A DNA stretch of 64,000 bases. It comes from a virus (lineage: Duplodnaviria; Caudoviricetes). The stretch lies in IMG/VR virus record IMGVR_UViG_3300044796_000401, one strand, 5' to 3'. Positions within the stretch are counted from its first letter, which is position 1; each line of letters starts with the position of its first letter. This document shows positions 35,901 through 52,456 of the stretch, in pieces. Made by a program: the position numbers and the translations under genes. Below the pieces are notes generated by a model. The model was not told the origin of the DNA. It ran no database searches and worked only from the letters and a program-made list of their open reading frames with translations.

Positions 35901-36175
35901 TTCTCGCGGAACACGTCCCACATCTGCACCTGGCCCCAGAGCGGGATGCGGTCGGCCCACTCCGGACGCCAATCCAGCGGCACGCCGAAGATGCACTTGG
36001 CGATGACGCGCTGCACGGGGCGCAGGACTATGCCGGTGCCCTGCGGGCCTTCGATGAACTCGACCGCGTTCATCAACTTGCGGTTGATGTCCGTTAGCCC
36101 GGCGCTGATCGCCTTGCCGAAGGCGGAATTCCTCTGCGCTTCCTTGTTGAATATCGAGACCCTGCGTGGCGGCAT
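32933..36175 (-). CDS. terL: Terminase large subunit split by an intein
   Basis: Walker A spliced as VFAGRRGGK|S; Walker B FLALDEFAHF; ISSP coupling motif; RNaseH-like WGFDLG...DAS and GAHDDMADA. Confidence 0.92.
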   Translation of the reverse strand: MPPRRVSIFNKEAQRNSAFGKAISAGLTDINRKLMNAVEFIEGPQGTGIVLRPVQRVIAKCIFGVPLDWRPEWADRIPLWGQVQMWDVFREKLIRTVSEEEYLHIAFNENRCNIDDWRDIPNLGKTYGGYNEAVVFAGRRGGKALALDEPIPTPNGFVRNGDIKDGDMVLSPSGKPTKVVYAHEPFVSEVYCVTFDDGTSVLAHPEHRWLTFTRADRMASCYRTPEHRKARREQRRVRAVAAGYEYAPRPEIVGLCTKLQPMGSVKTTQEIFQTLKVGNYSNHAIPLPRAVELPDKDLPLDPYCFGCWLGDGESAGGNYAAEESDALEILKYFVSAGFSWKKSKRKHRWSIRGLKVVLRKMGVLGNKHIPNDYLWASSSQRKALLQGLLDTDGGCSKGLVTFTNTRRNLSEGVYHLAASLGLKPYWKEVPPRNPKHKVQYWVTWTGESSVFRLQRKLNLLSVTVRKTQKYRYVVSIEPAGRRMVRCLTVEDPDGLFLFGKNFNITHNSELVAAITCFKLYLLLNIRSPQEFFGLVPGSPIDITYLAQDDTGADRLFKKLSERVNHCSFFEPFVRDNNSKKLTFVCEADRHKRDITPTLTVWSLPCSTNAVRGPSSVFLALDEFAHFRAEKGSTSEDMYAAATPSTVDFHHTERIYADGTTEAIPPEADPDNEEEVLEEDISAQVYEKNILAPRLPGQFGVQDSMIFSISSPLKRVGKMYELHKLALSKGAASSIFTLNCSTAEMNNKVLSKTLRADHEKNPLTFRAEFGGQFLESSESYVTEAAVKSCVDCHWDETGLPTEGSTRLNVVSFIPQLHLGRNYFWGFDLGMICDASALAIAHLEYGGGGGIRLIYDYIDRMMVGEHFTGPFIPQAPGEKRYENYKVLPLEDILVWMKAINRILPCFRGATDQHGGQQLAQLLELNGIFNFEMLNITPAINSQMAYALRGYIENKLCSFPYEPKFIKELKLVELEVASKYRIRVQAPMEKGAHDDMADAAMLCALLAQNWLVKEGNVHMDPKGIGLLMQQQQSRPPAPLSNIDGVPLSTLKVMERTKKLTTNLGYSSGTAPRSPWSRRGGRHR
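34655..35746 (-). mobile_element. Ala-start (class 3-type) intein with LAGLIDADG endonuclease (364 aa)
   Basis: Starts ALALDEPIPTPNG. W-C-T triplet in AHPEHRW, VRCLTV and ITHN|S. Helices FGCWLGDG and LLQGLLDTDG. Confidence 0.92.
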
Positions 36176-36990: not shown

Positions 36991-38772
36991 TCATAAAGGC
37001 ATTGAATAGCGCCTTTTCCCAGAATCCCATATGCGATACCAACCCCCAACCCTTGCTGCTTGCTTTTCATTAACTCCGGCTTTGACCCGGAATGCATACT
37101 TAGAAACTCGTTTAACCCCATTTGTATATCCGTAATCCGGTCTAAGCTCCTTCTCAAATGTAAATCCAAGCTTTTCATACAGACTTCCTGTATGAAAGCG
37201 GTTGTCGGAAAAAGTCACCATGCGAGTGAACTCCATGGCCTTGAGCGACGGCTTCGCCATGGTTAAAGCCTTTTCATGGGGATTCCAAGCCTTAAACCGG
37301 CAATCCCAGCAAGCTCGGTGCCACAGCACGGTATGAGCTTCGCGTTTCATGAACACCCAGCAACCTACAATCTCTTCTTTGTATTTCGCCACAACAGTAA
37401 GACATCCACTGGCGGCCCCAAGATAATGATTGGCATCCAAAAACCCTCTAGCATCCTTGGGAGTTCCGCGTTCAACCGTGAAAATTGGATTGATGCGTTT
37501 TTTGCTTGTCGGTTTGATCGCATCACAAAGCATACGTTCCATGATATTGCGTTTGTTTTTCCATTCATCAGCGTAAATCTGGATCAGACGGTCTCCACGG
37601 TTCACGGCGATCAAACTCTTATCGTAGTCGGCTTTTGTCCCACTGTATTTTTCCGAGTGCCATATCAGTCCGTGATGCTCAACAGCTAGTTTCTTAGACG
37701 GGATGTAGATGTCATAACTTTTGCGGGTACCCAATATTCGGTAAGTTCCGTTGTACGTACTGGGCTCTAATGATGCCACAAACTTTCTGATTTCCGATTC
37801 GGGGGAAGCGGGACCTTGCCCCTTGCTACAGCCGCAGGAAATTGTTCGCCCCGAAATTATATTGAATAGGTTGGAAACGATTTTACCCCCGCAGTCGCAA
37901 AGCAAGCGTACTTTCTTTGTAACCCCCCATTCCTCGGGGAGAGGTTGGTTGGGGTCTATTTTAAGGCTGCCCCACGATTGGTCTAACCACTCAAATTTAG
38001 GCTTCCAATTGCAGCGACCGCAGGAACTAACGCGTTGATTTACAACATTGTAAATGCTGGTTGATACACTTCGGCCACAATCACAAATGAAACGTAGCGG
38101 TGCTGATCGCCCATCCCCCCACTCGTCCGGCAGGACTTGGTTCCCATCCAACGCTAGTTTTTCCCATCTCTGCTTTAACCAATATGCCTTGGGCTTCCAG
38201 CTACACTTACCGCAGGAGGTGGAGTTGCCTGACACAACCCACGATCCGCGTAGCGTAGAATTCCGGCCACATTGGCATTGAAATTCAAACTTCTTTGCTG
38301 ACATTAGATTGAATACGTCAGGTAAAGGTTGGGTTTTACGCAGAGAGTATTTGCCCCACTTCTGACTCAGCCAGTAGTTTTTTGGACGGTCATTGCAATG
38401 ACCGCAGGAAGCGATTCGTCCCGATTGAACATCAGGCAAATACTTGCGTGTAATACTGCCACAGATGCAGTTGAAGATTAAAAATTTGGCGTGGCTGGGC
38501 GGGAACTCCTTAGGAAGAGGTTGATCCGCTGATAGTTTCAAACTTCCCCAAGCCTGTTCGAGCCAATAAGAGGCTGGCTTACAGGTACATTTGCCACAAG
38601 ATTTGACCTGCCCGCGAGTTAGATTTTTGAACACAGGAGAGAACGATCTACCACAAGAACAGATCGCTGAAAGCTTTTGATGACTGCCCGGCCCCCACTC
38701 ATCTAGTAGATTTTGAGTGGGGTCTAGTCTAACCCCACCCCACAATTGGCCCAGCCAATAATCTTTCAGCAT
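36991..38772 (-). CDS. Hef-like endonuclease: five Cys-rich repeats + PD-(D/E)XK/Vsr-like nuclease + GNAT/Mom-like domain
   Basis: Five repeats of about 64 aa (YWLxQxWG...QPLP...CxCG...SCGxC). SYDIYIPSKKLAVEHHGLIWH. GFLDANHYLG...TFSDNRFHTGSLYEKLGF...IWDSGK. Confidence 0.75.
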   Translation of the reverse strand: MLKDYWLGQLWGGVRLDPTQNLLDEWGPGSHQKLSAICSCGRSFSPVFKNLTRGQVKSCGKCTCKPASYWLEQAWGSLKLSADQPLPKEFPPSHAKFLIFNCICGSITRKYLPDVQSGRIASCGHCNDRPKNYWLSQKWGKYSLRKTQPLPDVFNLMSAKKFEFQCQCGRNSTLRGSWVVSGNSTSCGKCSWKPKAYWLKQRWEKLALDGNQVLPDEWGDGRSAPLRFICDCGRSVSTSIYNVVNQRVSSCGRCNWKPKFEWLDQSWGSLKIDPNQPLPEEWGVTKKVRLLCDCGGKIVSNLFNIISGRTISCGCSKGQGPASPESEIRKFVASLEPSTYNGTYRILGTRKSYDIYIPSKKLAVEHHGLIWHSEKYSGTKADYDKSLIAVNRGDRLIQIYADEWKNKRNIMERMLCDAIKPTSKKRINPIFTVERGTPKDARGFLDANHYLGAASGCLTVVAKYKEEIVGCWVFMKREAHTVLWHRACWDCRFKAWNPHEKALTMAKPSLKAMEFTRMVTFSDNRFHTGSLYEKLGFTFEKELRPDYGYTNGVKRVSKYAFRVKAGVNEKQAARVGGWYRIWDSGKRRYSMPL

Positions 38773-38833
38773 ATACACCAATACTGAAAAGTTCGTATTT
38801 GTATCCGCTTACATTGATCCTGTAAGTTATTGA

Positions 38834-41800
38834 TTATTCACGAGTTCCACAAACAAACTTATAGCGCATAATCATAGAGTCAGTGTCGATAGACTCGGCC
38901 CTCACGAATACCTCGTACACATAGCCCCCCTTCGGGCTATCGTTCCAAACGGCCGCTTGGCTCCAACTATCATTGATACAGTCCTGCACTTGACTGTCGC
39001 TCAGTTTGTCTAGCAAATACTTCACGCGGCTGCCCGTGTTAACAATGTTGTAGCTGCTCATGCCCTGCGGCTGCTCGATCTGGGCAAGCTGTACTTCGCC
39101 GACGCCCGGAACTTTGTCCAGCAGCGGGCGGCTGGTGACCTTAAATGCGCTGGTCATTGTTGCGGCTATCTCTCCGCACACCTTCTTCAGGAACATCCCG
39201 AACTGTTCAACCTCGGTCCCTGCGGCTGCTTTCTTCTGCAAGATAGACTCAGCCGAAGGTCCACCTTCATACTGCCCGTAGAACTGCTCGCGCCACAGGT
39301 CGCCCGCGCCGCGGATGTCGTCGTTGCCGCTGTTGGACCCTGCGGCGCTCTTCGATGCCACTTGCAGCGACGAGCCCGGAACGCTGTCGTAATTTCCGTA
39401 GAACTCATCAGTAAACATTAACCCCCTGATATCATTCTCCTTGCGGAGCGGTGCTCCTTCGAGCACCTCGGGCTTGCCGTCGCGTCCGATCCCCATCGCC
39501 CCGGCGGGGCTGGTTGAGGAATAGTCCGCCGAGGTGTGGACCTCTTCGACCTCGCCCACGTCGCCCGGAAGCTGGATCGCCTCCACGATGCCGATGTTGT
39601 CCATGGCGTTGTCGATCATGGTGTCGAGGTTCTGCTGGTCCGGCTCGCCGACCATCTCCGGTGCCTGCACGCCTTGCGGCGTGTTGGTGGCGTTCGGGTA
39701 GTCCACGATCTCGTGCTGGATTTCCGGGTAGAATTCCTTCAGGACTTGACCGGGGAAGAAGAAATTGAAGCCCGCTTCCTTTTCAAGTTCCGTTTGGCTC
39801 TTTACCACGCCCTTCGGTTTTGTGTCGTCTGCCATTGTTTTGTCCTTTGCCACTATGTACCAGCGCATCTGCTTCTGTTTCACCATGCCGCGGTCCTGAA
39901 GCTCCTTGAGAAACGGGTACGCAAGATTCGAGTGCTCCTCGCCGCCGAGCAACCGGTTAACCTCGCCCGTGGTTTTCGGACCCTGCTCCAAGATGCTCAA
40001 AATCTTGCCGCCCTGCTGCATCCCGTGCATCACATCGCCCATGGCTTCCTTGTACTCAGCCGCTTTCTTCACGCCCTTGCCGCCCGCCATGTAGTCGGCA
40101 TCGTCCCAGCGAAGGCCGTGCCTCGCCAAGACCTGCAACGCCTGCTCCTTGTTCATCCCGCCCATGACGCCCACCATTGCATCGGGTGCCTTGAGAGTAT
40201 CGATCGCGATGCGAAGCTGGTGCCTGTCGGGCACGCTGAGAGCGCCTTTGATCCCCATTTCCTGCATGAGCTTCTGGTCCTCTTCCGTGAGGTCCAGCTT
40301 GTCCTTAGACTTCGGCTCCGGAATCGGTTTTCCCGCTGCCTTCAGTTCTTCCTTCTCGCTTTCGACGGCGCTCTCCGCTATCTCTTCCCAGTTGACCTCG
40401 CCCATGGGCTGCTCCCAACTGTTCTGGACATCCCCGATGCCGTAGAAGAGGTTGTCAACCCTGTGCTTGAAACCCTCCTCCTTGGTCTGGGGCTGGTAGC
40501 CCTCAAGCTCCTTGCGCTCGAATTCCCCGCGGTCATCGCGAGCATTCTGGGCGTTATCCTCGTGAAATTGCGCGGTCTCCTCCGCTTGCTTGCGGAACAG
40601 GCGGCTGAACTGCCCGGCAAGCTGCTTTATCCCGATGCCCTTCTTCAGGGCGTTGGCGGCCAAATTGCGCTTGGTGTTGTAGACGGACTCCGTGTTGTCG
40701 ATCAGCAGGGCGACGTGCCATGTGCTCCAGTTCGTCCAGCCCTCGTAGCCTCCATCCTCGTCCGCCTTCTTGGATGACGCCGCCTTGCGCTGCTGCTCCT
40801 GCCAAGGGCATTTCGTGCACTTGTAGGTTCCGTCGTGGGTCTCTTTCCTCGCCTCAGCGCCGCACCACGGGCAGCGCATCGTGTCGGCGGCGGTCTTGGA
40901 GCTCATGACCTGAGTCCGCTCGGGGACGGTCCGGGACGGTGCTTGCGGCGTTGTCTTCGGCTTGTAGGGCTGGAGCTTCCACAAATACTTCTCAACCAAG
41001 GCATTGACCTTGTTTTCCGGCCTGGAAATCCCCGCGTACTCGCGGCGGAAGTCTTCCGCATCCTGGCCGCGCAACACGTACTCCCGCCCGTCCATGAGGA
41101 TGACCATCTGGAAACCGCTGGCGTCCCGGCCCTGCAACACGGAGATCGCGGCAGTACGTATACGGCCCAGGAATTCCCGTCCCGCTTTCTTCAAATCCCT
41201 TATGGAAATTGCTGCGGTCTTGCTGAGCGCCGCCGCCTTCTTCGCCGGGTAATCCCAGGACTCAAGGGCCGGACCTTCCAGATCGGTTCCGCCGAACATG
41301 CCGCCTCCATGACCTGATGTAATCTTGCCTTGATCCTCGCCGCCAATTGCCTCGTCATTCTTGGAAGCGATGTTGATGATGATCTGCTTGCCGGGCTTGG
41401 CGTCGATCTCCACCGATTTGCCAGCCTCCTCGGCTTTGACTTCTTCCTGCTTCTCAGAAATCGGCACACCGACTTCCATCTCGGACTGCGTCTCGATGGC
41501 CTCGCGGATGGCGTTCACGTTCGCACGCTCCGGAGAATGCAGGTCGCCATCGAGCACGGGGGAAGCCCCGTTCTCCGAGTGCGAGTTCTCATGAAGCTCG
41601 TCGTTCGCCGGACCTGCCTCGGGGCCGGGAACCGCGGGCTCCATTTTCTGCCCCAGTTCGTTGTCGCTATGGATCATTTCCGCTGCTTTCTTGCCGCCTA
41701 CCGGAATGCCCCGACGCTCAAAGTCGTAACACGTCTGCGAACATAAGAGCTTGCCGTTGGCTCGATAAGGCTCTTTCGTGATAGGGTCGCCGCACCGCCC

Positions 41801-42043
41801 GCATTTCTGTTCCCCTGCTGCCTTCTTGGAGGCGGTAACCTGACCGTCGTCGGATATTCCTTGATTCGGGATGACAGCTACGGAACCGTCCGCGAAGCGG
41901 ACCTTGGTTTCCTTATTGGGGTACTTTCCTGCCGGACCCAGATTCTCGACGATCTCCAAGTCCGTTCCCGAACGGCGGAAATCCCCGCCGTAGGAATACT
42001 TCGTCACGTCCCAATAACCCCAGCCCGCCAGCAATTTCGCCAT
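38834..42043 (-). CDS. Large modular protein (1069 aa), probable virion-associated polyvalent protein
   Basis: Short modules (CGRC..C..C and CPWC..CTKC ribbons, GWTNWSTWHVALLIDN module, HQLRIAIDTL module, wHTH-like segment) separated by KxA-containing linkers. Confidence 0.75.
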   Translation of the reverse strand: MAKLLAGWGYWDVTKYSYGGDFRRSGTDLEIVENLGPAGKYPNKETKVRFADGSVAVIPNQGISDDGQVTASKKAAGEQKCGRCGDPITKEPYRANGKLLCSQTCYDFERRGIPVGGKKAAEMIHSDNELGQKMEPAVPGPEAGPANDELHENSHSENGASPVLDGDLHSPERANVNAIREAIETQSEMEVGVPISEKQEEVKAEEAGKSVEIDAKPGKQIIINIASKNDEAIGGEDQGKITSGHGGGMFGGTDLEGPALESWDYPAKKAAALSKTAAISIRDLKKAGREFLGRIRTAAISVLQGRDASGFQMVILMDGREYVLRGQDAEDFRREYAGISRPENKVNALVEKYLWKLQPYKPKTTPQAPSRTVPERTQVMSSKTAADTMRCPWCGAEARKETHDGTYKCTKCPWQEQQRKAASSKKADEDGGYEGWTNWSTWHVALLIDNTESVYNTKRNLAANALKKGIGIKQLAGQFSRLFRKQAEETAQFHEDNAQNARDDRGEFERKELEGYQPQTKEEGFKHRVDNLFYGIGDVQNSWEQPMGEVNWEEIAESAVESEKEELKAAGKPIPEPKSKDKLDLTEEDQKLMQEMGIKGALSVPDRHQLRIAIDTLKAPDAMVGVMGGMNKEQALQVLARHGLRWDDADYMAGGKGVKKAAEYKEAMGDVMHGMQQGGKILSILEQGPKTTGEVNRLLGGEEHSNLAYPFLKELQDRGMVKQKQMRWYIVAKDKTMADDTKPKGVVKSQTELEKEAGFNFFFPGQVLKEFYPEIQHEIVDYPNATNTPQGVQAPEMVGEPDQQNLDTMIDNAMDNIGIVEAIQLPGDVGEVEEVHTSADYSSTSPAGAMGIGRDGKPEVLEGAPLRKENDIRGLMFTDEFYGNYDSVPGSSLQVASKSAAGSNSGNDDIRGAGDLWREQFYGQYEGGPSAESILQKKAAAGTEVEQFGMFLKKVCGEIAATMTSAFKVTSRPLLDKVPGVGEVQLAQIEQPQGMSSYNIVNTGSRVKYLLDKLSDSQVQDCINDSWSQAAVWNDSPKGGYVYEVFVRAESIDTDSMIMRYKFVCGTRE

Positions 42044-45000
42044 TTATTTATCCTCGCCCGCCTCGGGTTCTTCCGCCATGACTACATCAGCCAAGTCCCC
42101 GGCCCCGAGGTCGATGGGGATTTCCTCCGGCAGATTGTCGCCCGCCGCCGCTTCCTTGCCTGCCGCCATCTGCCCGAAGGTCCAGACGATCTGGTTGCAT
42201 TCATGGCAGAACATCTTCTTGCCTTCCGCGACTGTGAAGGTCTCCGTGTCGGGGGAGAAGCAGCGGGGGCATTCGCCCCTCGACGCCCTTTCCCCGCCGA
42301 TTCTGGGGTTCTGCTCTTGGCTCTCGAACAGCCCCGAGGCTTCCTTGTCGCTCGCCAGGATCGCCGGAACATCCAAAGCTTCCGGCGCTCCGCCGCCCAG
42401 GTTGGACACAGGCTGTTTGCCGCTTTCCGTTTCGCCCTGTGCCACAGGGATTTCGGACGCCGAAACCTTGGCGGCTTCCGGGACCGACTTGGTCTCCCGC
42501 TTGATGCTCGGGTCAACCGTATCGGGGCTCACAGTCTCGGACTTGGCTTCCGCCACGTCTCCGGAGACAGGAGCAGCGACCTTGGCCGCCTCCGGTACCG
42601 ACTCGGTTTCCTGATGGATATCTGTGTCCACGGTGTCGGGGCTCACGGTCTCGGACTTAGCCTCGGCCACGTCGCGACTAACATCGCTGGAAGTCAGAGG
42701 CAAGCTCATCTGGTTCGGGTCGGGCTCGGATGCGGGTTCCTCTTCATCGTACAGATTTCCGCCGTACTGCATCCATACGTTCTTTCCGCTCACTAGTTCC
42801 TCAACCATATCTTCGATCTGGTAGCGTTCGTGCCAGTAGACGTTCCCGCCCGGATCGGAAATGATCTCGCCAGAGGTCAATGCACCGATATCCTCGGGGT
42901 TGACCCATTCCCAGCCGTTGCCAGTGAAGTCTTCGAGCAAATCGTGAAGCTGCGGGTTCCATTCAACAAACCCCTTGCCCACATCAGCCTTGTTCTCAGC
43001 AACTTCGTTGAGAAGCTCCGGAGTCGGCTTCAGTGTGATGCCGCCCTTTGAATAAACAGCGGTCACATAGAGACCATCGAATTTGCCTGTCGGCTCGGCC
43101 GCTGTCTTGCTGCGCAGTTCCTCGGCCGAAGTGGTTTCCGGCTTCGTGTTGCTGTTCGTGGCGTAGGGGCTCACGGATTCCGCCTTGGCTTTCGCCAAGT
43201 CCTGCTGGATGCCGTCCGCCAACTTCTGGCCCGTGGGACCGTCGCTCGGCCCTATGTTGTCGATGGGCTTCTTCGGTTTTGGCGTCGTTATGGTTCCCAA
43301 GGCGGAGGCGCTCCTCGCGTTCGGCCCGCTGGTGTCCGCCTTGACGGCGTTCTTCTTGTCTTCCGGCGCTCCGTCGCCGTCCTTCCAGTTGTACGGGTTG
43401 TCGGCGGTATCGGCTTTCTTTTGGGATACGCCCGTGCGTGATGTGAGTGTGGATTTAAAATCCGGATGATGCCGCAGATTTTCTGCTTCATAGCCTCGCG
43501 GTTTTTCATCCGATTGTGCGGCACGATAGGCTGCCTGACAGCCACGACAAGTTGCATCCCAAGCAGGATGCTTTTCGCAATGCACCTGCTTTTCAAAACC
43601 GCCAGCGCCCTTGGACTGCTGCTTGTCATATTCCTTGTGGTGCTGCACGGTCGAAGATTCCCCGGTTTCCTTGGTTGGTGCTTCGCCCTTATCGGCGTCC
43701 ACGGCGTTGTCCGCAATGTCCGCCCTCTTCGGCTTGTCGGCCTTGACCTTCTTGGCAGACGTGTGGATGTCCCCTTCAAGAGGCTCGCCACTTTTGTCCA
43801 GATCGGGCTTCTCGTAAAGCTCTTCTTCCTCGGAAGGCTCTTGGCAGTTGCAAGACTCGCCCTCTTCCACATCGCTGCCGCATATCGGGCACTCGTTGTA
43901 GCGGACCCAGCCCTTTTCCGGCACCCACGTCTTCTTCCCGTTGGGGCAGCCAAGTTCGTGGCACGGTATCCCGTTGATGCTGAGCATCTCGCACTGGTCG
44001 CACCCGAACTTCGGCGCATCGGATTCCAGTTCGTCGGCTGCTTCCTTCACGAAGTCTTCCATGCTGGACGAAACCTGCCACGGCTTGTCGGACTCCGGCT
44101 CGTCATGTTCCTGCTTCGCCTCCGGCATGGAATCTTCTTGCGCCTCGGCTTCGGGCTCGGACAATGCCTTGTCGTCTTCCGGCTCGTCGCTCTTGAACGC
44201 CTCGGGCAACTCGCCTACATCTTTCTTGTTCGGGCGGCCATCAGTGCTGCCCTCCGGCTGCGTCGCGGTCTCACCAGGAACATCAATATCGACCAATGGT
44301 GCCGGTCCCATATCCTCGGTAATTTCTTCCCAGATCGAGTCGATGTCGAGCGCGACATCCGCCTGCTTGGGGCGGAGCTTGTTCAGCTTTGCTTCGCGCT
44401 CGTCATATGCCTTTTTGGTCTTCAAGGACGCCACTTCATAGCCCTCGTCGAAATCGGCGGCGATATGCTCGGCGATGAAATCCGCCTTGATTTGCTGGGC
44501 GGCTGTCTTAAGAGTCGGGTTTGGTCCCCATTTCCCTGCATCGATCTCTGCTGCATGGTCGAGCATGGCATGGTGCGGCTGCGCATCGGGCGTCGTGGTC
44601 TTGATGAGGTAGGCGCGGACATCCTTGGGCGGGAAGCTGTGCTTGTCGTGGAATCCACCCGTGCCATATGCCGCGGAGTATCCGCTGCCAAGGGAATTTG
44701 ACGAGCTTGCTGGCATGAGTCGCCCAGCGTCCGGATGTGTGCCGGGGTAACGCTTTCCCGTGCGGCTACGATTCTTGGTAATAGCGGCTTCCTTGTCAGA
44801 AGCGAGCACTTCCGGAAGAACCTTGACAGCGGTGCTGATCGCGCTGCCGACACCTTCCGCGGCGTTTTGCAGCGGATTTTCCTCATTTTGCGAATCTCCG
44901 TTAGTGGCTTTCTTCTCCGAAACCGTTCTCGGAAGCTCCTCCCCACTGGCGAAACCGCTGGGAAGCTGACGGAATGCCTCGGGGCTGTGGTCCTTCAGCC

Positions 45001-47032
45001 ATCCAGCTAGCCAGTGGCGCATGAACGCATACAGGTAATCGCGCCCGGCGTTGCCACGGGAGCGGATTCTCTTGCGGAAGGCTGTGTTGGCGGCGTACAC
45101 CCTCTCCGCGTAGTTTGTGAGGTAGTCCACTACAGGCTCGGTGTTCTCACCAATGGAGTCTTGCAGCCCCTTGCCAACGAAGAACATTTGGACTTCGCGG
45201 ATGACGCTGTCAGCAATGACCGTGGGCAGGATCGGCGTGTCGTCCTCGATGGCGGAAGTCTTCTTGCTGCCGACCTTGGCTTCCTCTTCCTCGCGGCGGG
45301 GAACCCCGGTCTCGTCGATGGCCACGCCGATGGGCGGCTCGCCTTCCTGCTTTTCGACACGCTCCTTGACGGCCTTGACCGTGCCTTCTTGGGCTGCGGC
45401 TGCCTCGGTGCCCGGCCCGACGTTCGTAATCGGGGTCTCGTGAGCGGCGGGCTCGATGCAAGCGCATTTCTTGCCAGATGTTTTTCCTTCTTCCAGCAAG
45501 CCAGCACCATCAAAGCGGACGGTTTCACCATTGGCAAGCATTTCAATTGGGTCTTCAATCTGATAACGTTCATGCCAGTAGACGTTCCCGCTCGGGCTGA
45601 GAAGAATTGGAGCAGAAGTCAAAGCACCGACATCTTCCGGATTCTTCCATTCCCAGCCGTTGGAAAGTAGGTCTTCAAAGATGTCCATCAGAGCGTTGTC
45701 AGTCGGCTTGTCCTTGTAAGCGGGGATTTCCTTCAAGCCGAGTTCGGTCGCGGCGACATTCAAATTGCCTTGCGGATCAATCTTGAAGGAAACGTAAGCA
45801 CCCCGGTCATCGTCTTCGTGGGCGTCCTTGTGCCTCTTGGCAGCCTCGTCCAAGCACTTGTTGCAACGGTCGCCACGGGCTTCGTCACCCATGAGAGTTG
45901 CATGGCAGGTCTTGCATTTCTTATCGGCGGCTGACTTCGCTTCCCCCTCTTGCTTGTCTGTCTTCTTTTCAGAGCCGAACGGCGGGGCTTGTCTTCCACC
46001 AAATGCCTCGGCGGCTCCGGTTTTTGGAGCGTCTTCCTTGTCTTTCTTGCCGGAGGTGCTCTTGTTCTTGCAGAAATTGCAACCACAGTCGGGCTTGCGA
46101 CCCCCGACAGAGTTTTCGGATTCATGGGACTTGGCAAGCCCCTTCATCGATTCGTACGACATGGCTTCTTTGGACGCCACGCGGGGAACGTCGAATCCGC
46201 CGTCGTCGTGATGCTCTTCCCCGGCTTCCTCCGCCGTCTCGGTGCTGGGTACCAAAGCTTCGCTGAGCGCCTGATTGAGGGACTCGAACACGTCGAGTTC
46301 CTGCGGGTCCAGTACTTCCTGGGTCACGGCGTCGGCCGTGCGGTGGTTCAGGAAAATCTTCTTCTTGTTCCCGGCTTGCTTCTGGAGGTCCGGATACTGC
46401 GTGAGCAAGTTCTCGGCGAGGAACGGGAAATTCAGCTTCGGGGTGATGTCCGTAACGTCGATCTTGGTCGTGTTGGCGTTCGTCATGATGGCGTTGAATG
46501 CGCTCGACAGACGGGGATCGTAGTACGCCGCGAACACCTGATGCCGCAAGTTGTTCTTGAGTTGCGTCTCGTCCTTCGTGAACTTGAAGACAATATACTC
46601 GCGCTTGCTGAGCCAGTTGGGGGCGAACAGGACGAGGGACTCGAACTTGCCGTCTCCGACGCCGAACAAGCGCTCTTTGATTGTGTCGAAGTCAGCTTGG
46701 CTGTATTCGTCCCAATCGCTAATACCGATCCTCTTCTCGATCATGTCGCCGACTTCCTCGCCGCCGAATTCCCTTACGATGCAGCCGTAGAGCAACGCAG
46801 TCGGGAAGTCCTTGCGGTCGGAGCAGATAGACGCCGGAATGACATAGATGCGCCCGATGCAGATGTTGGCACGAAAGCCGCGATAGAACACCTCGAAGCT
46901 CTGGATGTTCCCGGACGAGCGGGCCTGTTTCTCCCCCGCTTGTACGGCCTCTGTGACTTTCGCCAGCAGGTCTTCGCTGATGATAAACGAACTGTAGCTT
47001 TTTCCAACGTTAGAATTTCCGCTTACGCCCAT
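42044..47032 (-). CDS. Very large acidic modular protein (about 1662 aa), probable virion-associated polyvalent protein
   Basis: Start MGVSGN just after the HNH stop. Duplicated NGWEW.NPED.GALTS...GNVYWHERYQIED domain; several Cys ribbons; many KxA linkers. Confidence 0.75.
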   Translation of the reverse strand: MGVSGNSNVGKSYSSFIISEDLLAKVTEAVQAGEKQARSSGNIQSFEVFYRGFRANICIGRIYVIPASICSDRKDFPTALLYGCIVREFGGEEVGDMIEKRIGISDWDEYSQADFDTIKERLFGVGDGKFESLVLFAPNWLSKREYIVFKFTKDETQLKNNLRHQVFAAYYDPRLSSAFNAIMTNANTTKIDVTDITPKLNFPFLAENLLTQYPDLQKQAGNKKKIFLNHRTADAVTQEVLDPQELDVFESLNQALSEALVPSTETAEEAGEEHHDDGGFDVPRVASKEAMSYESMKGLAKSHESENSVGGRKPDCGCNFCKNKSTSGKKDKEDAPKTGAAEAFGGRQAPPFGSEKKTDKQEGEAKSAADKKCKTCHATLMGDEARGDRCNKCLDEAAKRHKDAHEDDDRGAYVSFKIDPQGNLNVAATELGLKEIPAYKDKPTDNALMDIFEDLLSNGWEWKNPEDVGALTSAPILLSPSGNVYWHERYQIEDPIEMLANGETVRFDGAGLLEEGKTSGKKCACIEPAAHETPITNVGPGTEAAAAQEGTVKAVKERVEKQEGEPPIGVAIDETGVPRREEEEAKVGSKKTSAIEDDTPILPTVIADSVIREVQMFFVGKGLQDSIGENTEPVVDYLTNYAERVYAANTAFRKRIRSRGNAGRDYLYAFMRHWLAGWLKDHSPEAFRQLPSGFASGEELPRTVSEKKATNGDSQNEENPLQNAAEGVGSAISTAVKVLPEVLASDKEAAITKNRSRTGKRYPGTHPDAGRLMPASSSNSLGSGYSAAYGTGGFHDKHSFPPKDVRAYLIKTTTPDAQPHHAMLDHAAEIDAGKWGPNPTLKTAAQQIKADFIAEHIAADFDEGYEVASLKTKKAYDEREAKLNKLRPKQADVALDIDSIWEEITEDMGPAPLVDIDVPGETATQPEGSTDGRPNKKDVGELPEAFKSDEPEDDKALSEPEAEAQEDSMPEAKQEHDEPESDKPWQVSSSMEDFVKEAADELESDAPKFGCDQCEMLSINGIPCHELGCPNGKKTWVPEKGWVRYNECPICGSDVEEGESCNCQEPSEEEELYEKPDLDKSGEPLEGDIHTSAKKVKADKPKRADIADNAVDADKGEAPTKETGESSTVQHHKEYDKQQSKGAGGFEKQVHCEKHPAWDATCRGCQAAYRAAQSDEKPRGYEAENLRHHPDFKSTLTSRTGVSQKKADTADNPYNWKDGDGAPEDKKNAVKADTSGPNARSASALGTITTPKPKKPIDNIGPSDGPTGQKLADGIQQDLAKAKAESVSPYATNSNTKPETTSAEELRSKTAAEPTGKFDGLYVTAVYSKGGITLKPTPELLNEVAENKADVGKGFVEWNPQLHDLLEDFTGNGWEWVNPEDIGALTSGEIISDPGGNVYWHERYQIEDMVEELVSGKNVWMQYGGNLYDEEEPASEPDPNQMSLPLTSSDVSRDVAEAKSETVSPDTVDTDIHQETESVPEAAKVAAPVSGDVAEAKSETVSPDTVDPSIKRETKSVPEAAKVSASEIPVAQGETESGKQPVSNLGGGAPEALDVPAILASDKEASGLFESQEQNPRIGGERASRGECPRCFSPDTETFTVAEGKKMFCHECNQIVWTFGQMAAGKEAAAGDNLPEEIPIDLGAGDLADVVMAEEPEAGEDK
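42465..42673 (-). repeat. In-frame tandem repeat, 114-nt (38 aa) period
   Basis: DVAEAKSETVSPDTVD...ET.SVPEAAKV occurs twice. Confidence 0.9.
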
Positions 47033-47033
47033 G

Positions 47034-47606
47034 TTATTCTCCCGCTCCGATTGCCACTCCAATCGAATGCCTGTAAATCTTTGAAATGTGCCGCTTGAAA
47101 TTCTCAACCGACATAGCGGCCTTCATCCTATTGCAGTCCCAGCAGCAAGGCACAACATTGCCCTCGACATACCCGTCCGTGCTTTTTAGCCTGTCTATGC
47201 CGTTGCAAATTAACTCTTGCACACAGTGTTGGTGCCGAACAATTCTCGTTGGTACATCTCCGCAGTAAAAACAGTCTGCCGCAATCAACTCAGTGAAGCA
47301 TTCAACAGACAATCCCCAAGATAATTTCCGCCTACCAGCGTTGCGCCTGTAGTACTCCAGTACCTTGTTTCTATTAGCTTCATTATTCGGAAGCCCGTTG
47401 GCTTTTCCGACTCCGGACATGAAATCCTTAAGTAAGCAACCACAACTTCTTGTATGCCCGTACCTCAAGTCGCATCCGTTAACGACTGGAGTTGCCCCAC
47501 AATCGCACTGGCACAACCACGTTGGCTGCCCATGTTTATTGGTACCTACTTTTTTGATAACCAATAAACGCTCAAACCGTTTTCCGGTCAGGTCAATTAA
47601 TCGCAT
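47034..47606 (-). CDS. HNH-like homing endonuclease (paralogue of 26291..26848)
   Basis: DLTGKRFERLLV...WLCQCDCG...SCGC, then CFYCG...NGIDR...GY..GNVVPCCWDCNRMK. Confidence 0.85.
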   Translation of the reverse strand: MRLIDLTGKRFERLLVIKKVGTNKHGQPTWLCQCDCGATPVVNGCDLRYGHTRSCGCLLKDFMSGVGKANGLPNNEANRNKVLEYYRRNAGRRKLSWGLSVECFTELIAADCFYCGDVPTRIVRHQHCVQELICNGIDRLKSTDGYVEGNVVPCCWDCNRMKAAMSVENFKRHISKIYRHSIGVAIGAGE

Positions 47607-48115
47607 TTGGTTTCCGTAGTAAAATCCAACTTATCAACAGCTTTTCTTATTCCCGGTTCCCGTTGGGCCATTTCATCCCTCCACTGACGGAGAAATTGTT
47701 GAACGGTACTCTCGTCGATACCGATTTTCTTAAGGGTATCAACCGCTCCCTGGCGATACTCTCCTAGCACAAAAGCCAAACGAGGACCATCAAAGTTCAA
47801 AAAATCCTTCTTGCTGAGCACGTCGGACTCCATCAGTTCCTTGCCGAGTTCGCGGAACGCCTTGACTTGCGATTCCAGCACCTTGACCTTCAGCCCGTCC
47901 AGCATGTTGGTGCTCACATCCTCGCTGCAAATCATCATCTCTGCCGTGACAGAGGCGATCTCGGCGGCTATTTTCCGCTTGATGGGTGCCAGCGGGGCAT
48001 CCGGGTCGTCGATCATTTCGCGGATTTCCTTGATCTTGGAAAACCGCTCCCGCTCGCTCATGACGGGCGTGTGGGAGACTTCCCCGTTTTTTTCTACCTT
48101 GAGTTCCTCGTTCAT
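47597..48115 (-). CDS. Hypothetical alpha-helical protein
   Basis: 172 aa, coupled to the upstream gene. Confidence 0.7.
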   Translation of the reverse strand: MNEELKVEKNGEVSHTPVMSERERFSKIKEIREMIDDPDAPLAPIKRKIAAEIASVTAEMMICSEDVSTNMLDGLKVKVLESQVKAFRELGKELMESDVLSKKDFLNFDGPRLAFVLGEYRQGAVDTLKKIGIDESTVQQFLRQWRDEMAQREPGIRKAVDKLDFTTETKCD

Positions 48116-50202
48116 TAATCGACATCCACCTTGAATGAAGCGTTCGACTCCACGTCGAGCCGATCCGGTTCGTCAGCACTAATATCCTGCTGCGCTGCCG
48201 GGCCGGACAGATCGTACTCGTTCAAGATAGAGTGCCCGTCTTCCGCCTTCTTCGACGCCGTCTTCTTGCTCGGGTCGTTCATGCCCGGATAGGCAAGAAT
48301 CGGGGCATCCCCGCTGCTGGCGACCACCCGGTCCGCCGGAGGACGCACCTGTTCGAGCGTGCGAAGCGCCTCGGGCTTGAACCCGACCCTTGCGAGGAAG
48401 GACTGGTCGGATGCGTTGACCTGAATCCGCCCCGGCACCCTCTTCAGTTTGGCGAGGTACTGGGCTACGACCCTCTTCGCTTCCGGCGTGCCCATCTTCT
48501 TGGCGGCGACGGCAAAAATGCGCTCGATGCTGTGCCCCTTCTGGTGCATCAGCCTGACATCAGCCGCGGTGATCGCCGCCTCGGCCGATTCCTTCTGTTG
48601 CGCCGCCACGACGGAAGCCGTGCGCTGGGCGAAGTTGCCGCTCACGCGCATCGCGCCGCGGTCTTCCTCGACCGGGCGTGCCGGGCGTCCAAAGTGGCTC
48701 GGGCAGGAAGCGCACTTCGCGCTGCCTTCGAACTTCTCGTTGCGGATGCCGATGGAGTTCAGGAATTGGAGGTCGGACGCGGCTATCACGATCCTGCCCC
48801 TGTCGTTCTTGCGGAGCGACTGGACGAAGCCCCTGAATGCCACGCTGGTCTCGATCGAGCCGAACTTCTTGTCGGCCCACTTGTAGGCGTCCTTGAGGGA
48901 TACGCCCTTGTCATGGAGCTTCGCGAGGTGCCCGGAAGTGAATGTCCGCCGCACGGGCTGCGTGCGGGCCGCCTGATTATAGACACTGGCGTCGGCGGTC
49001 TTGACGATCTGCGTCTGCGCCGTCTTTCCGGCGTCGAACGGCTGGACATGCTCGTCCGTGCGGTTGGCGATTTGCACCAAGGCGGCGCGTTTCTGCTTCA
49101 GCGGCACGCCGGGCGTAAGGTTGTTCACGATCTGGCTGAGTTCCCCAGCGTTCGCCACGACCGGGAGGTGGTACAGATTGCACCGCTTGCCAGATGCGTC
49201 CTTCTTGAAGAACGTACAGCCGGGGCACGCCCCGATCTGCTTGACGCTCTTCGCCTGCGGCTTGATGCCAGCCCTCTTCATCCCCTCGAAGGAGGCGACG
49301 CACTCGTTGGAGCCGCTGCTGCCCGTCACTTCGTAGGGCTTGGTGCTGAAGATGATGCGGTCGCAATGCGGGCAAAGGCTGTTGCCTTGGAGAACCTTGG
49401 GGACGACATCCTTTTTGCACTCGGTGCAATACAGCTTCCCGCCGAAGCTCATGCTTTTCGCTTCCTCGACGCCCTTGTTCCAGGCAAGCTCGTCCTGCTC
49501 GCAAGTGCACCTGTCGCCGGGCTTGTGGCACAATGCGCAGGTATCGTGCTTCAATGCCCCGGCGTTGTGGCGATAGTTCGGATTCTGCTTATCCATAAAC
49601 GTGTTGGGCTCAAGGTAGGCCATGCCCAGCATTCCGGCATTGCGCTGGAGATAATCGGTCGCCGTCGTGTGGTTGAAAAGCTCAAGCTCGGCCAGCTTTT
49701 CGAGCTTCTGGGCGACCTTCGCCGGGGACGTGCCTTGGTTGAGCAGCCCGCGGATGTACTTCTGGACCGCGGCATCGGTGACTTCCTTCTTGTCGGCGGT
49801 GTTCTCCTTCAGGTTTCCCCCGGACGCGGCCTGTTCCAAGCTCATCGTGACTTCGTTGAACAGCGAATCGCTGTCGCCGTAAGCGTTGCGGTACTCATCT
49901 TCTCGGGAGTAGGCGTCCTTGTGCCAATTCTCCTGCACGGCGGAGACCCGAGGAGACGCTTTCTCCTTCTCGCGAAGGCGATCCGTGAGGGTGGCGCTCT
50001 TCGACGGCGGGATGGGGGTGTGCTTCGAGGCCGATTCCGAGATTTCGTCCATGAAGTCCCGATCGATGAGGGAATGCGTGCGGTCGAGCGTTTCCTCGCC
50101 GGACTTTTTTGCCTCGTCAAGATCGAGGTCTTTCCACGAGGGTTCCCTGGAGTCAAGAATTTCATCCAAAATACTTGTATAAGGCAGTTTTTCTTTCGCC
50201 AT
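48115..50202 (-). CDS. Large hypothetical protein (695 aa) with Cys ribbons and KxA linkers
   Basis: Start MAKEKLPY just after the GIY-YIG stop. CALC, CTEC..CPHC, CPGC and CASC motifs. Confidence 0.72.
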   Translation of the reverse strand: MAKEKLPYTSILDEILDSREPSWKDLDLDEAKKSGEETLDRTHSLIDRDFMDEISESASKHTPIPPSKSATLTDRLREKEKASPRVSAVQENWHKDAYSREDEYRNAYGDSDSLFNEVTMSLEQAASGGNLKENTADKKEVTDAAVQKYIRGLLNQGTSPAKVAQKLEKLAELELFNHTTATDYLQRNAGMLGMAYLEPNTFMDKQNPNYRHNAGALKHDTCALCHKPGDRCTCEQDELAWNKGVEEAKSMSFGGKLYCTECKKDVVPKVLQGNSLCPHCDRIIFSTKPYEVTGSSGSNECVASFEGMKRAGIKPQAKSVKQIGACPGCTFFKKDASGKRCNLYHLPVVANAGELSQIVNNLTPGVPLKQKRAALVQIANRTDEHVQPFDAGKTAQTQIVKTADASVYNQAARTQPVRRTFTSGHLAKLHDKGVSLKDAYKWADKKFGSIETSVAFRGFVQSLRKNDRGRIVIAASDLQFLNSIGIRNEKFEGSAKCASCPSHFGRPARPVEEDRGAMRVSGNFAQRTASVVAAQQKESAEAAITAADVRLMHQKGHSIERIFAVAAKKMGTPEAKRVVAQYLAKLKRVPGRIQVNASDQSFLARVGFKPEALRTLEQVRPPADRVVASSGDAPILAYPGMNDPSKKTASKKAEDGHSILNEYDLSGPAAQQDISADEPDRLDVESNASFKVDVD

Positions 50203-50204
50203 AG

Positions 50205-51200
50205 TTATGCGGCAGCCGAGGCTGCTTTCTCCTTCTTTAAACATGTAACTTGTGCTCTGTTGGCGCAAGCGGAACTACAATATTTTCTTACTCCCGCGAG
50301 ACACAAATCCCTCCTGCGCAAGACAATCGAAGAACCGCACGTTAAACACACATTCGGATGGGTAAGGTATTCATTCCATTCACGATTATGACGTTCTCGA
50401 ACCGATTCGCTGCGCAAAGTACGCACAAAACGATATACGCCTTGAACGCCTTTGGTATACCCGAGTGCTTGTAACCGCCCCCAAATTGTAACCCCGTCTA
50501 GCTGTGGCATTTGTTGGAGCCATGAAGTGACAATCTCCCGAAAGGGCTCGCACTCCCTATGAATACGAGGACTCAAAAGTTGTACTTGACGCATTCTATC
50601 TGCCTGAGCTTTACGCCGTGTGGCGGTCCAATGCTCTTGCTGTTCTTTTCTAAAAATCGGATCATTCCAAGCAGCTTTAGAGATTAAACTCATACGTGTT
50701 TTTATGTCTGCCGGATATTCCCGTTGCTTGTTGTACGCAGTAAAACGCTCTCCGTGGCGCTTTTTACGTTCGTGGTTGGATTGCCATGCTGCCTTGCGCG
50801 ACGCGCTCTGTCTGTCACGGAATTCCTTTGATAACCACAACCGCTTGGAAATCCCGCTTTGTTGTTTTCGCCTTGCGGGTGAGAGTTTGATTCCAGAATT
50901 CCTGCCCGCTAGCGGCATGACGTTGTACCCATTTTTAACCGCGTCGAACGAGTTTATCGCCATCTGTTCGTGCCACAACAGGTCTTCCTTTGGGCAAAAC
51001 GCCAACATCTCAAATTCAAAGGCGGCGGGTCCGTATTTATTCCAAGCGCGTTGAAAATGGATGCTGTGGTGCCCGTTGGCCTTAAGAAGCCTTAGATGGG
51101 CAGCTTTTCGTTCTCGTACTTTGGCAGAACTCCCAATATAGGATTTCTGGGTGATTGTGTTCAGCCAGCGATAGACCCCGCAATTGAAAAAGTCTGTCAT
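50205..51200 (-). CDS. GIY-YIG homing endonuclease
   Basis: GVYRWLNTITQKSYIGSS...R...AWNKYG...EQ...GYN. Confidence 0.9.
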   Translation of the reverse strand: MTDFFNCGVYRWLNTITQKSYIGSSAKVRERKAAHLRLLKANGHHSIHFQRAWNKYGPAAFEFEMLAFCPKEDLLWHEQMAINSFDAVKNGYNVMPLAGRNSGIKLSPARRKQQSGISKRLWLSKEFRDRQSASRKAAWQSNHERKKRHGERFTAYNKQREYPADIKTRMSLISKAAWNDPIFRKEQQEHWTATRRKAQADRMRQVQLLSPRIHRECEPFREIVTSWLQQMPQLDGVTIWGRLQALGYTKGVQGVYRFVRTLRSESVRERHNREWNEYLTHPNVCLTCGSSIVLRRRDLCLAGVRKYCSSACANRAQVTCLKKEKAASAAA

Positions 51201-51520
51201 TAATCGAAGCTCAAATCATCAAGAATGTTAGCCAAAAACGTGGCTGGCTTATCCTCGGGGGCACCGGGGATTGAGTCCCCATCGTCAACCTCAGAGCCGA
51301 CTAATTTCCGTATTTTTCCGTCCTTGACCTGCCAGAAATCGTGGGATGCGGGGCATTCGTAGATCGACCCAGCTACCCGAGTCAGCCCCCAACTGGCGAT
51401 CTGCTGGCGGACCTCCTCGGAATAGGCCGCCAAGCTGGCGAAGTGGTTCTTGGAAAATACTGTTTCCGTGGCCTTTTCGCTGCCGAGGCCGTACACCTTT
51501 TGGGGATAAGTTTTGCGCAT
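51200..51520 (-). CDS. Hypothetical protein (106 aa)
   Basis: Start MRKTYPQ with GAGGG RBS; this is the 3' part of ORF 51200..52351. Confidence 0.65.
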   Translation of the reverse strand: MRKTYPQKVYGLGSEKATETVFSKNHFASLAAYSEEVRQQIASWGLTRVAGSIYECPASHDFWQVKDGKIRKLVGSEVDDGDSIPGAPEDKPATFLANILDDLSFD

Positions 51521-51529
51521 AGTGCCCTC

Positions 51530-51545
51530 ACTTAAAGGGGCGAAA
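51530..51545 (-). promoter_or_regulatory. Recurrent upstream motif TTTCGCCCCTTTAAGT
   Basis: Identical to 36187-36202; 10 nt upstream of ATG 51520. Confidence 0.55.
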
Positions 51546-51631
51546 GTAGGTTTCCACACAAAATACCGCTTTTTCGACCCTCTATTAGGGGCCTTGAAAG
51601 TCCGACTTCCGCCCGCTTTATTGAGGAAACC

Positions 51632-52456
51632 ATGCAGATCAAAAACATCGGTATTTTCGACTCGACAGCCATAATCACTTCGCCTCCGGCCGCCACCGCA
51701 ACCGGGGCATGGATCGACATCAGCAACCTCGTCTCTTTGTCCGTGCATATCACGGGAGTCGAATCCAAGACGTGGATCGAGGTCAGCAACGACCCCTACG
51801 TCAACATCGACGGCAGCGGGGCCTCGGGCACCGACCTCGTGGCGGCACCCGTCTCTGGACCGACCCTGAGCCAAGGCCCGGCGGCGTTCGGCGGCCTCAG
51901 CAACCAAGGCACCTACTTCGTCAAGGTCACGTACATCACCCCTTGGGGCGAGACCACGGCAAGCCCGGAGTCCAGCCTCGCCGTCAGTGACAACTATGTC
52001 CTGTTCATCGCCCCGCCCCCCGCGGACGTGACGGGGTTGGCCGCGGGCTGGAACGCCTACGTGGGCAAGTCCAGCGGCAAGGAAGTGCTTCAGACCGGAC
52101 CGGCCTACATCCCGGCGCATACCGTGGACGCGACCCCCGGCATCCATTTCGCCATCAACGGCGTCCTTCCCTTGGGCATCGGCCTGAGCCTGGTGAACGG
52201 CTACGCCAGCACGGGCGTGGCGGTCCCGGCTTCCAACACGGCTGGCGGCATCGGCGTGGGAACAAACGTGTTGGGCACGAGCGGCGACCTCAGTTCCGCC
52301 TCGCAGACGGACGCCGCGATCTCCATTTTCAAGGACACCAACAACAACCAAGTGGTCTGGTCTCCGGCGGGCATGACGTGGAAATGGCTCCGCGTGCGCA
52401 AGACCCCGCTGGGCTCGCTTGACACCGTGGCTTGGCTGACAGGGCAGAACGGATAA
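51632..52456 (+). CDS. Probable structural (beta-rich, G/A/T/S-rich) protein
   Basis: GAGG RBS; YFVKVTYITPWGET..SPES motif typical of phage tail/virion proteins. Confidence 0.55.
   Translation: MQIKNIGIFDSTAIITSPPAATATGAWIDISNLVSLSVHITGVESKTWIEVSNDPYVNIDGSGASGTDLVAAPVSGPTLSQGPAAFGGLSNQGTYFVKVTYITPWGETTASPESSLAVSDNYVLFIAPPPADVTGLAAGWNAYVGKSSGKEVLQTGPAYIPAHTVDATPGIHFAINGVLPLGIGLSLVNGYASTGVAVPASNTAGGIGVGTNVLGTSGDLSSASQTDAAISIFKDTNNNQVVWSPAGMTWKWLRVRKTPLGSLDTVAWLTGQNG

Follow-up and report, generated by a model that had tools for sequence, protein, structure and literature searches.

A Lys-x-Ala tag punctuates giant multi-module proteins of an uncultured jumbo phage and is probably a capsid protease site

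Introduction

What is the role of three giant phage proteins, encoded near a large terminase gene, in which the same short Lys-x-Ala motif recurs between small modules? The proteins (P0001, P0002 and P0003) are encoded within a stretch of 64 kb, referred to here as the window, of IMG/VR virus record IMGVR_UViG_3300044796_000401. The window is part of a 103.5-kb contig, estimated to represent about 32 % of a genome, and its source is an uncultured jumbo phage of soil or peat type. No near-identical DNA was found in cultured phages. The nearest cultured relative is Tunturiibacter phage Tunturi_5, with a large terminase that is 42 % identical; Tunturi_5 is a 309-kb myovirus with an Acidobacteriota host (PMC11924767).

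An earlier note on this DNA, made without database searches, had described the motif and interpreted the three proteins as small phage proteins concatenated into cleavable cargo polyproteins. The observation was confirmed and the interpretation was partly supported. Release of domains by proteolysis has been proposed for the polyvalent proteins (Iyer, Burroughs, Anand, de Souza and Aravind 2017, PMC5512222), and a literature search found no paper linking polyvalent proteins with capsid-protease joints. The pattern of the sequences indicates that the Lys-x-Ala tag is probably where the capsid protease cuts. It is also fairly probable that P0001-P0003 are head-internal polyproteins, with S-K-x-A-[A/S/D/G] as the prohead protease site, and that their folded pieces leave the head with the DNA.

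Results

Enrichment and conservation of the tag

K-x-A-[ASD] was observed 12 times in P0001, 12 times in P0002 and six times in P0003, compared with composition-shuffled expectations of 1.6, 3.3 and 1.7. The three proteins contain approximately 30-37 strict sites, which agrees just loosely with the 'dozens' originally described. Enrichment by position, determined for 26 homologues, was 9.7-fold for S at P4, 3.9-fold for K at P3 (R just 1.9-fold), 7- to 12-fold for T, K, Q and F at P2, 3.8-fold for A at P1 (every other residue at most 1.45-fold) and 2.6- to 4.1-fold for A, S, D and G at P1'. Among 87 proteins with a common N-terminal domain, K.A[ASDG] occurred 939 times with 296 expected (3.2-fold); seven control patterns (reversed, R.A, E.A, K.G, K.S, KA. 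and K..A) in the same proteins ranged from 0.8- to 1.3-fold. Counts at the DNA level were 16, 14 and 7 in the coding frame and 0-3 in the remaining five frames, and the Ala of the tag is encoded by all four codons. Restriction to the coding frame together with mixed Ala codons indicates that the tag is a protein-level signal, and a nucleotide repeat or recombination signal was rejected on the same grounds.

The sites are also conserved in position. Four occur at matching aligned places in the window proteins and in gp350 of Tunturi_5 (~40 % identical), including K-T-A-D of gp350 at the place of K889-Q-A-D in P0002. In a 33-sequence alignment extending down to 26 % identity, K218 and A891 of P0002 were invariant and K889 was nearly so (Table 1). 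At site 755 of P0001, K was retained in 87 %, A in 81 % and G/A in 88 % of 81-89 homologues, with neighbouring residues below 50 %, while K and A at sites 425 and 659 were kept in 66-78 % of homologues.

These data bear on the possibility that the tag is an uncleaved inter-domain linker, a cap or another modification site, with the giant proteins acting intact. Lys/Ala-rich linkers are common, and transfer in uncut form is described for the virion RNA polymerase of phage N4 and for several polyvalent proteins of plasmids (PMC5512222). A plain linker, however, needs no fixed and directional K at P3 and A at P1.

The tag in head proteins of relatives

No protease or capsid gene was found on the window's contig, and the question of a protease site was therefore examined in relatives. 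The head-maturation protease gene is located next to the scaffold and capsid genes in Tunturi_5 (gp331-gp332-gp334) and in the homologous loci of four relatives (G001-G004), whose protease homologues match phrog_18299, 'head maturation protease' (E 8e-16). The clade is widespread, with a capsid family of more than 1300 proteins and contigs of up to 465 kb, and the portal is a separate gene in the relatives. A PDB sequence search with the protease gave no match, and models for PF03420 (Peptidase_S77) and the T4 Gp23 capsid gave none in three genomes but were also silent in control genomes.

In the Tunturi_5 capsid protein gp334, the tag occurs just twice, at residues 19 and 26. A site near residue 26 was present in 119 of 120 capsid homologues and none was located beyond residue 45, but this conservation adds little because the homologues are 82-97 % identical. 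The 287-aa protease gp331 has sites at residue 33, about ten residues before its conserved core, and at residue 265. Sites on either side of the protease core were found in four relatives, in each case leaving a conserved C-terminal tail of 30-40 residues. Seven sites were found in the acidic scaffold-like gp332 (1.9 expected) and 12 in the 'ejection protein' gp328 (2.3 expected), while the sheath, four fibre proteins and other tail proteins of Tunturi_5 contain 0-1 sites. The same division was apparent in a complete 332-kb relative (G001), with 67 sites in the head/internal set against 21.0 expected (3.2-fold), two in tail and neck proteins against 3.0 and 127 in all other open reading frames (ORFs) against 95.

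A conserved, mostly acidic tail of 30-46 residues follows the last K-x-A in P0002 (42047-42148, minus strand), in P0003 (48118-48255, minus strand) and in the protease of relatives (L014-L017). These tails may be prohead-binding or loading peptides.

The tag also occurs in a classic polyvalent protein, gp321 of Tunturi_5, which has SprT, 2H, ART-PolyVal, GNAT and DUF3990 domains. Sites 473, 730, 910 and 1046 are located between its Pfam domains (2H, 511-638; ART, 755-894; GNAT, 940-1013; DUF3990, from 1082) and a fifth, 594, lies inside the 2H domain. Three polyvalent-type proteins of 586, 992 and 696 aa in the window (Table 1) belong to the same system as P0001-P0003.

An uncleaved linker leaves unexplained why the tag is found on the capsid N-terminal end, on both sides of the protease core and throughout the scaffold-like protein, yet not on tail proteins, and this alternative is considered quite unlikely. 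Alternatively, cutting of the sites could be the work of a protease of the host or of a peptidase located within the polyproteins themselves, the role that Iyer et al. suggested for zincin-like metallopeptidase (MPTase) domains. MPTase domains are present in 36 % of polyvalent proteins (PMC5512222) and gp321 contains a SprT-like zincin domain. However, no peptidase domain was detected in P0001-P0003 or in 95 homologues, and the tag on the protease's own flanks, the capsid and the scaffold implicates the head protease over other peptidases, making an embedded or host peptidase very improbable. The tag on these same three proteins of relatives also backs the earlier proposal of cleavable joints, as far as a protease-site role is concerned.

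Modules and domain borders in P0001

An AlphaFold2 model of P0001, built with 62 sequences, has confident domains at residues 281-363, 433-600, 601-660, 661-733 (weaker) and 940-1069 and a weak Zn ribbon at 390-420; elsewhere the predicted local distance difference test score (pLDDT) is below 50. Five of the six domain starts (281, 390, 433, 661 and 940) are located 0-6 residues after strict sites (277, 385, 427, 661 and 939), for which a rough chance estimate is ~2e-5 (13 site clusters in 1069 residues). The sixth, 601, is preceded by K-G-A-L. Homology-block ends in P0001 were a median of 12 residues from the nearest site, compared with 27 by chance (P=6e-4). Among homologues, 33 % of internal block ends were within 8 residues of a site versus 12 % by chance, although the ends are not mutually independent.

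With P0001 as the query, a full HMMER search gave 345 matches among 1.84 billion representative proteins. The C-terminal domain was always found at the extreme C-terminal end, in proteins of ~75-1520 aa, the shortest of which are probably fragments, and the linear motifs of residues 758-939 were conserved in all homologues. Modules 118-230, 291-372, 429-600, 600-667 and 679-732, and the modelled domain at 281-363, occupy other positions in other giant proteins. For example, the winged helix-turn-helix (wHTH)-like module precedes rather than follows the 279-599 block in one relative (L003), and in P0076 the DUF7249 module is part of an ORF-A-type protein. Modules found in the giants of relatives include DMP19-like, GNAT and several Zn-ribbon ones, although such hits are rare among homologues. 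The architecture is therefore many-domained and variable, with at least six separate AlphaFold2 modules in P0001 and a content and order that differ between relatives while K-x-A sites are kept, as the earlier note had expected.

Evidence for stand-alone counterparts of the modules was found for DUF7249, which matches phrog_871 (E 1e-10) and an 89-aa stand-alone ORF of the T7-like Providencia phage MTT. This was the sole significant match when ten pieces cut at the sites were scanned against PHROG. The idea of concatenated small phage proteins is thus supported for this module, which had been singled out at P0001 residues 432-496, and not for the other modules, which match no family. The starts of four small metagenomic proteins correspond to P0001 positions 423-431, at sites 422/427, and an 89-aa metagenomic protein ends three residues from site 661. 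These proteins come from contigs of 0.9-6 kb and are only suggestive as stand-alone counterparts; when two of them were used to scan viral contigs, no informative context emerged. When the P0001 model was compared with the PDB by Foldseek, there was no match at E <= 0.001 and only weak PAS/LOV-like rows appeared, presumably stemming from the C-terminal alpha/beta domain. Comparison with BFVD gave only meaningless long alignments (template-modelling score ~0.06), and the ESM Atlas yielded no useful match.

The main rival explanation is that P0001-P0003 are scaffold or core filler that shapes a large prohead and is diced at K-x-A, with the pieces leaving before DNA packing and nothing being delivered. 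This would fit the high predicted disorder (46 % in P0001 and 63 % in residues 1-1200 of P0002), the many acidic stretches, the location of the genes within the head/packaging block and the scaffold-like protein beside the protease, which is alike in composition and has the greatest density of sites. A lack of recognizable enzymatic domains in P0001-P0003 points the same way. However, a separate scaffold-like gene is already present, P0001 contains small modules that fold well (pLDDT 85-97), including one with homologues among stand-alone small phage genes, and DMP19-like and GNAT modules occur in the same frame of relatives. That modules are replaced and reshuffled quickly is also more in keeping with an arms race than with a structural function. 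The filler explanation is accordingly regarded as unlikely, albeit as the strongest competitor; as regards the delivery of cargo in particular, it is just as possible that the pieces resemble scaffold and are expelled after cutting.

Features of P0002 and P0003

The N-terminal domain of P0002 heads 92 giant proteins of 416-1971 aa. Sites 220, 844, 891, 1104 and 1143 of P0002 are located at the ends of structured elements in its AlphaFold2 model. The domain of about 100 aa said to be present twice is real, with a 66-aa core whose copies are 59-66 % identical, as is the 38-aa tandem repeat, with 81 % identity between units 1451-1487 and 1489-1525. The small Cys ribbons that had been described are present. 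P0003 contains an internal repeat (429-489 and 552-611) and a conserved C-terminal tail beyond the last site.

Two known identities were considered for these proteins. A tape-measure or portal identity was rejected because there is no family match, the portal is encoded separately in relatives, and the models show separate small domains and long disordered stretches rather than the one continuous fold that would have contradicted a modular reading. Tunturi_5 gp350 is annotated as 'DarB-like', a label from an automatic structure-based annotator. A DarB identity for gp350, P0001 and P0002 is not supported, as no methyltransferase or helicase domain and no DarB-family match was found with Pfam and PHROG.

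Descent from a gp350-type gene

Proteins of the gp350 type consist of a conserved N-terminal domain, a variable middle and a conserved C-terminal domain. The first 270 residues of P0002 align with the beginning of gp350, a short conserved stretch near P0002 residue 900 with gp350 residues 748-790, and the final 315 residues of P0001 with the gp350 end. Since start, inner segment and end all match, P0002 and P0001 represent one ancestral gene. Sequence comparison indicates that the middle of this gp350-type gene has grown ~2.5-fold, with small modules as the proposed additions, and that the gene was split into two coupled ORFs, the TAA stop of P0002 being followed directly by the ATG of P0001. 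Each of the six distinct relatives in IMG/VR likewise has the two-ORF form (of 1346-2002 and 1056-1591 aa), and a sequencing error as the origin of the split was rejected on this basis. Some metagenomic homologues of 876-1151 aa hold both end domains in one protein, like gp350. Free concatenation, as first envisaged, is not supported, as the conserved N- and C-terminal domains and linear segments were inherited from a single ancestral gene.

Gene order and neighbouring genes

The gene order in Tunturi_5 is identical apart from the endonucleases: gp348 (530 aa), gp349 (170 aa), gp350 (1080 aa) and terminase gp1. The gp349 homologue, of 172 aa in the window, is always located between the P0003-like ORF and the giant ORF and is not enriched in sites. 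The block has been heavily invaded, by an intein in the terminase and by three free-standing homing endonucleases (two HNH and one GIY-YIG) that split the pairs gp347/gp348, gp349/gp350 and gp350/terminase, which are adjacent in Tunturi_5. The terminase has a length of 1080 aa because of the LAGLIDADG intein inside it; those of relatives have ~710 aa. Upstream of gp348, Tunturi_5 encodes a small conserved protein, gp347. In the window, a match to gp347 is confined to the final ~105 residues (about 51200-51520) of a 383-aa ORF called at 51200-52351 on the minus strand, and this call is probably an over-extension.

Table 1. Coordinates of genes, modules and selected sites in the window
Feature	Positions	Strand	Description
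586-aa polyvalent-type protein	1637-3397	plus	InPase and RelA/SpoT; sites before, between and after Pfam domains
992-aa polyvalent-type protein	3461-6439	plus	2H/Acb1-like N-terminal domain; 6 sites, 1.8 expected
696-aa polyvalent-type protein	11500-13590	plus	ParB-like and NUDIX; sites between domains
Large terminase	32933-36175	minus	1080 aa; LAGLIDADG intein / homing-endonuclease domain (Pfam LAGLIDADG_3, residues 380-455)
Second HNH homing endonuclease	36991-38781	minus	Between P0001 and large terminase
P0001	38834-42043	minus	1069 aa; second half of expanded gp350 homologue ('ORF B')
Conserved C-terminal alpha/beta domain	38837-39226	minus	P0001 940-1069; pLDDT 78-96; directly after site 937-940
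Conserved segment, predicted unstructured	39227-39772	minus	P0001 758-939
Site K755-E-A-G	39770-39781	minus	P0001; K-E-A-A in Tunturi_5 gp350
wHTH-like helical module	39845-40060	minus	P0001 662-733; pLDDT 53-73
Small helical module	40061-40243	minus	P0001 601-661; pLDDT 87-96; ends at site 661
DUF7249/phrog_871 module with helical extension	40244-40762	minus	P0001 428-600; begins straight after site 427
P0001 module 281-363	40955-41203	minus	pLDDT 72-96; between sites 277/287 and 385
P0002	42044-47032	minus	1662 aa from ATG, 1687 from upstream TTG; first half of expanded gp350 homologue ('ORF A')
Two 38-aa tandem repeat units	42458-42682	minus	P0002 1451-1525; K-V-A/S site ends each
Duplicated domain, copy 2	42752-42949	minus	P0002 1362-1427
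Site K889-Q-A-D	44357-44368	minus	P0002; just before conserved DSIW...GPAP segment; K 30/32, A 32/32 aligned homologues
Duplicated domain, copy 1	45494-45691	minus	P0002 448-513
Site K218-Q-A-G	46370-46381	minus	Closes P0002 N-terminal domain; K 32/32, A 26/32 aligned homologues
P0002 conserved N-terminal domain	46373-47032	minus	Residues 1-220; AlphaFold2 confident 17-170
HNH homing endonuclease	47034-47606	minus	Between 172-aa gene and P0002
172-aa protein	47597-48115	minus	Tunturi_5 gp349 homologue
P0003	48115-50202	minus	695 aa from ATG; Tunturi_5 gp348 homologue
GIY-YIG homing endonuclease	50205-51200	minus	Free-standing

Discussion

From these patterns we infer cutting at the tag, packaging of the proteins and injection of the pieces. 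The precursors P0003, P0002 and P0001 would be built into the prohead, for which the conserved end domains, the 758-939 segment of P0001 or the tails past the last site may act as loading signals. The prohead protease would then cut the precursors at the joints into ~10-15 pieces each, of 30-380 aa, and would concurrently trim the capsid N-terminal end, remove its own N- and C-terminal tails and cut up the scaffold-like protein. Those pieces that are folded would be retained in the head and exit with the DNA as host-takeover or anti-defence factors, and those that are disordered and acidic would probably share the fate of scaffold fragments and be lost. Assemblin-type proteases cut between Ala and Ser. 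By analogy with these, the cut would be expected after the Ala of the tag, which also fits the metagenomic look-alikes that begin just past Ala.

A more far-reaching proposal, which is put forward tentatively, is that K-x-A-small forms a 'punctuation code' read by the capsid protease. Dozens of small effectors would be loaded as a few polyproteins with fixed end domains, and modules could be inserted, deleted, duplicated or swapped at the joints, or even moved between the two ORFs, without disturbing loading.

Several observations weigh against head-internal polyproteins cut at the tag. As noted above, the window's contig has no protease or capsid gene and the conservation of the capsid site carries little weight. 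Not every giant of the clade is punctuated, as the 2982-aa polyvalent protein of G001 (L018; 309147-318095, minus strand), a gp321 homologue, was not enriched (5 sites with 3.2 expected). Pfam and PHROG scans found no enzymatic domain in P0001-P0003. The AlphaFold2 model of P0002 is poor (mean pLDDT 48) and places site 996/998 inside a predicted helix. In both P0002 and P0003, homology-block ends were not significantly near sites, and the placement of K-x-A at module borders, claimed for all three proteins, applies to P0001 and less well to the other two. P0003 is not a clear mosaic but a mostly collinear conserved protein with an inserted Cys-ribbon stretch. Sites within predicted helices or a Cys motif (285 and 568 of P0001, 996 of P0002 and K-C-A-S of P0003) may be uncut.

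P0001-P0003 resemble the polyvalent proteins (PMC5512222) as giant multi-module phage proteins with a shuffled and fast-changing content and a supposed delivery with the DNA. They differ in that their modules are far smaller (37-170 aa) and mostly of no known family, and in their fixed N- and C-terminal domains. The known polyvalent repertoire, which includes MPTase, ART, ParB, SNF2, methylase, RelA/SpoT and 2H domains, is absent from P0001-P0003, DUF7249 being the sole match; the hallmark domains InPase, RelA/SpoT, 2H, ParB, NUDIX, ART-PolyVal, GNAT and SprT are instead spread over the 586-, 992- and 696-aa proteins of the window and gp321. Release is predicted here to depend on a trans-acting capsid protease at a short tag and not on an embedded MPTase.

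There are also parallels with head processing in giant phages and T4. The gp245 protease of SPN3US makes A-x-E cuts, identified by mass spectrometry, in capsid, portal and ejection proteins and in its own C-terminal tail (PMC10052503). In SPN3US, phiKZ and 201phi2-1 (PMC10052503, PMC5694885) and in T4 (gp21; internal proteins and Alt), capsid, scaffold or core, ejection proteins and the C-terminal tail of the protease have one short motif in common, from which the head proteome can be predicted, and substrates can receive several cuts. The tag has a matching distribution in the present clade. The motif of SPN3US, phiKZ and T4, however, is x-x-Glu (hydrophobic/Ala-x-Glu) rather than Lys-x-Ala-small, and nearly all SPN3US cuts remove N-terminal propeptides, whereas the present sites punctuate the full chain between modules. 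The protease of this clade matches phrog_18299; the Pfam Peptidase_S77 model (T4 gp21 type) gave no match, but it was silent in the control genomes too.

As predicted large internal head proteins, P0001-P0003 would have a parallel in the Dar system of phage P1, in which DarA is cut by protease Pro and DarB (~2000 aa) is packaged (PMC12810830); the Dar proteins are loaded via head morphogenesis and ejected against host defence (PMC12810830). With herpesvirus assemblin and viral polyproteins the present proteins would share the division of one translation product into many and a cut after Ala. There is no substrate homology with assemblin, and the likeness concerns the site residue. The Lys-x-Ala-small motif, the punctuation of the whole chain between very small modules, the fixed end domains, the two-ORF split and the clade itself set this system apart.

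If the tag is a protease site, sequence could be used to predict which proteins are loaded into the head, and probably injected, in a large and little-studied clade of Acidobacteriota-type jumbo phages, and the cultured relative Tunturi_5 makes this reading directly testable. The system would represent a polyprotein strategy in a double-stranded DNA phage in which the capsid protease acts in trans and its site is of Ala type and not of Glu type. The small modules, mostly of no known family, would then constitute a catalogue of candidate early host-takeover and anti-defence factors.

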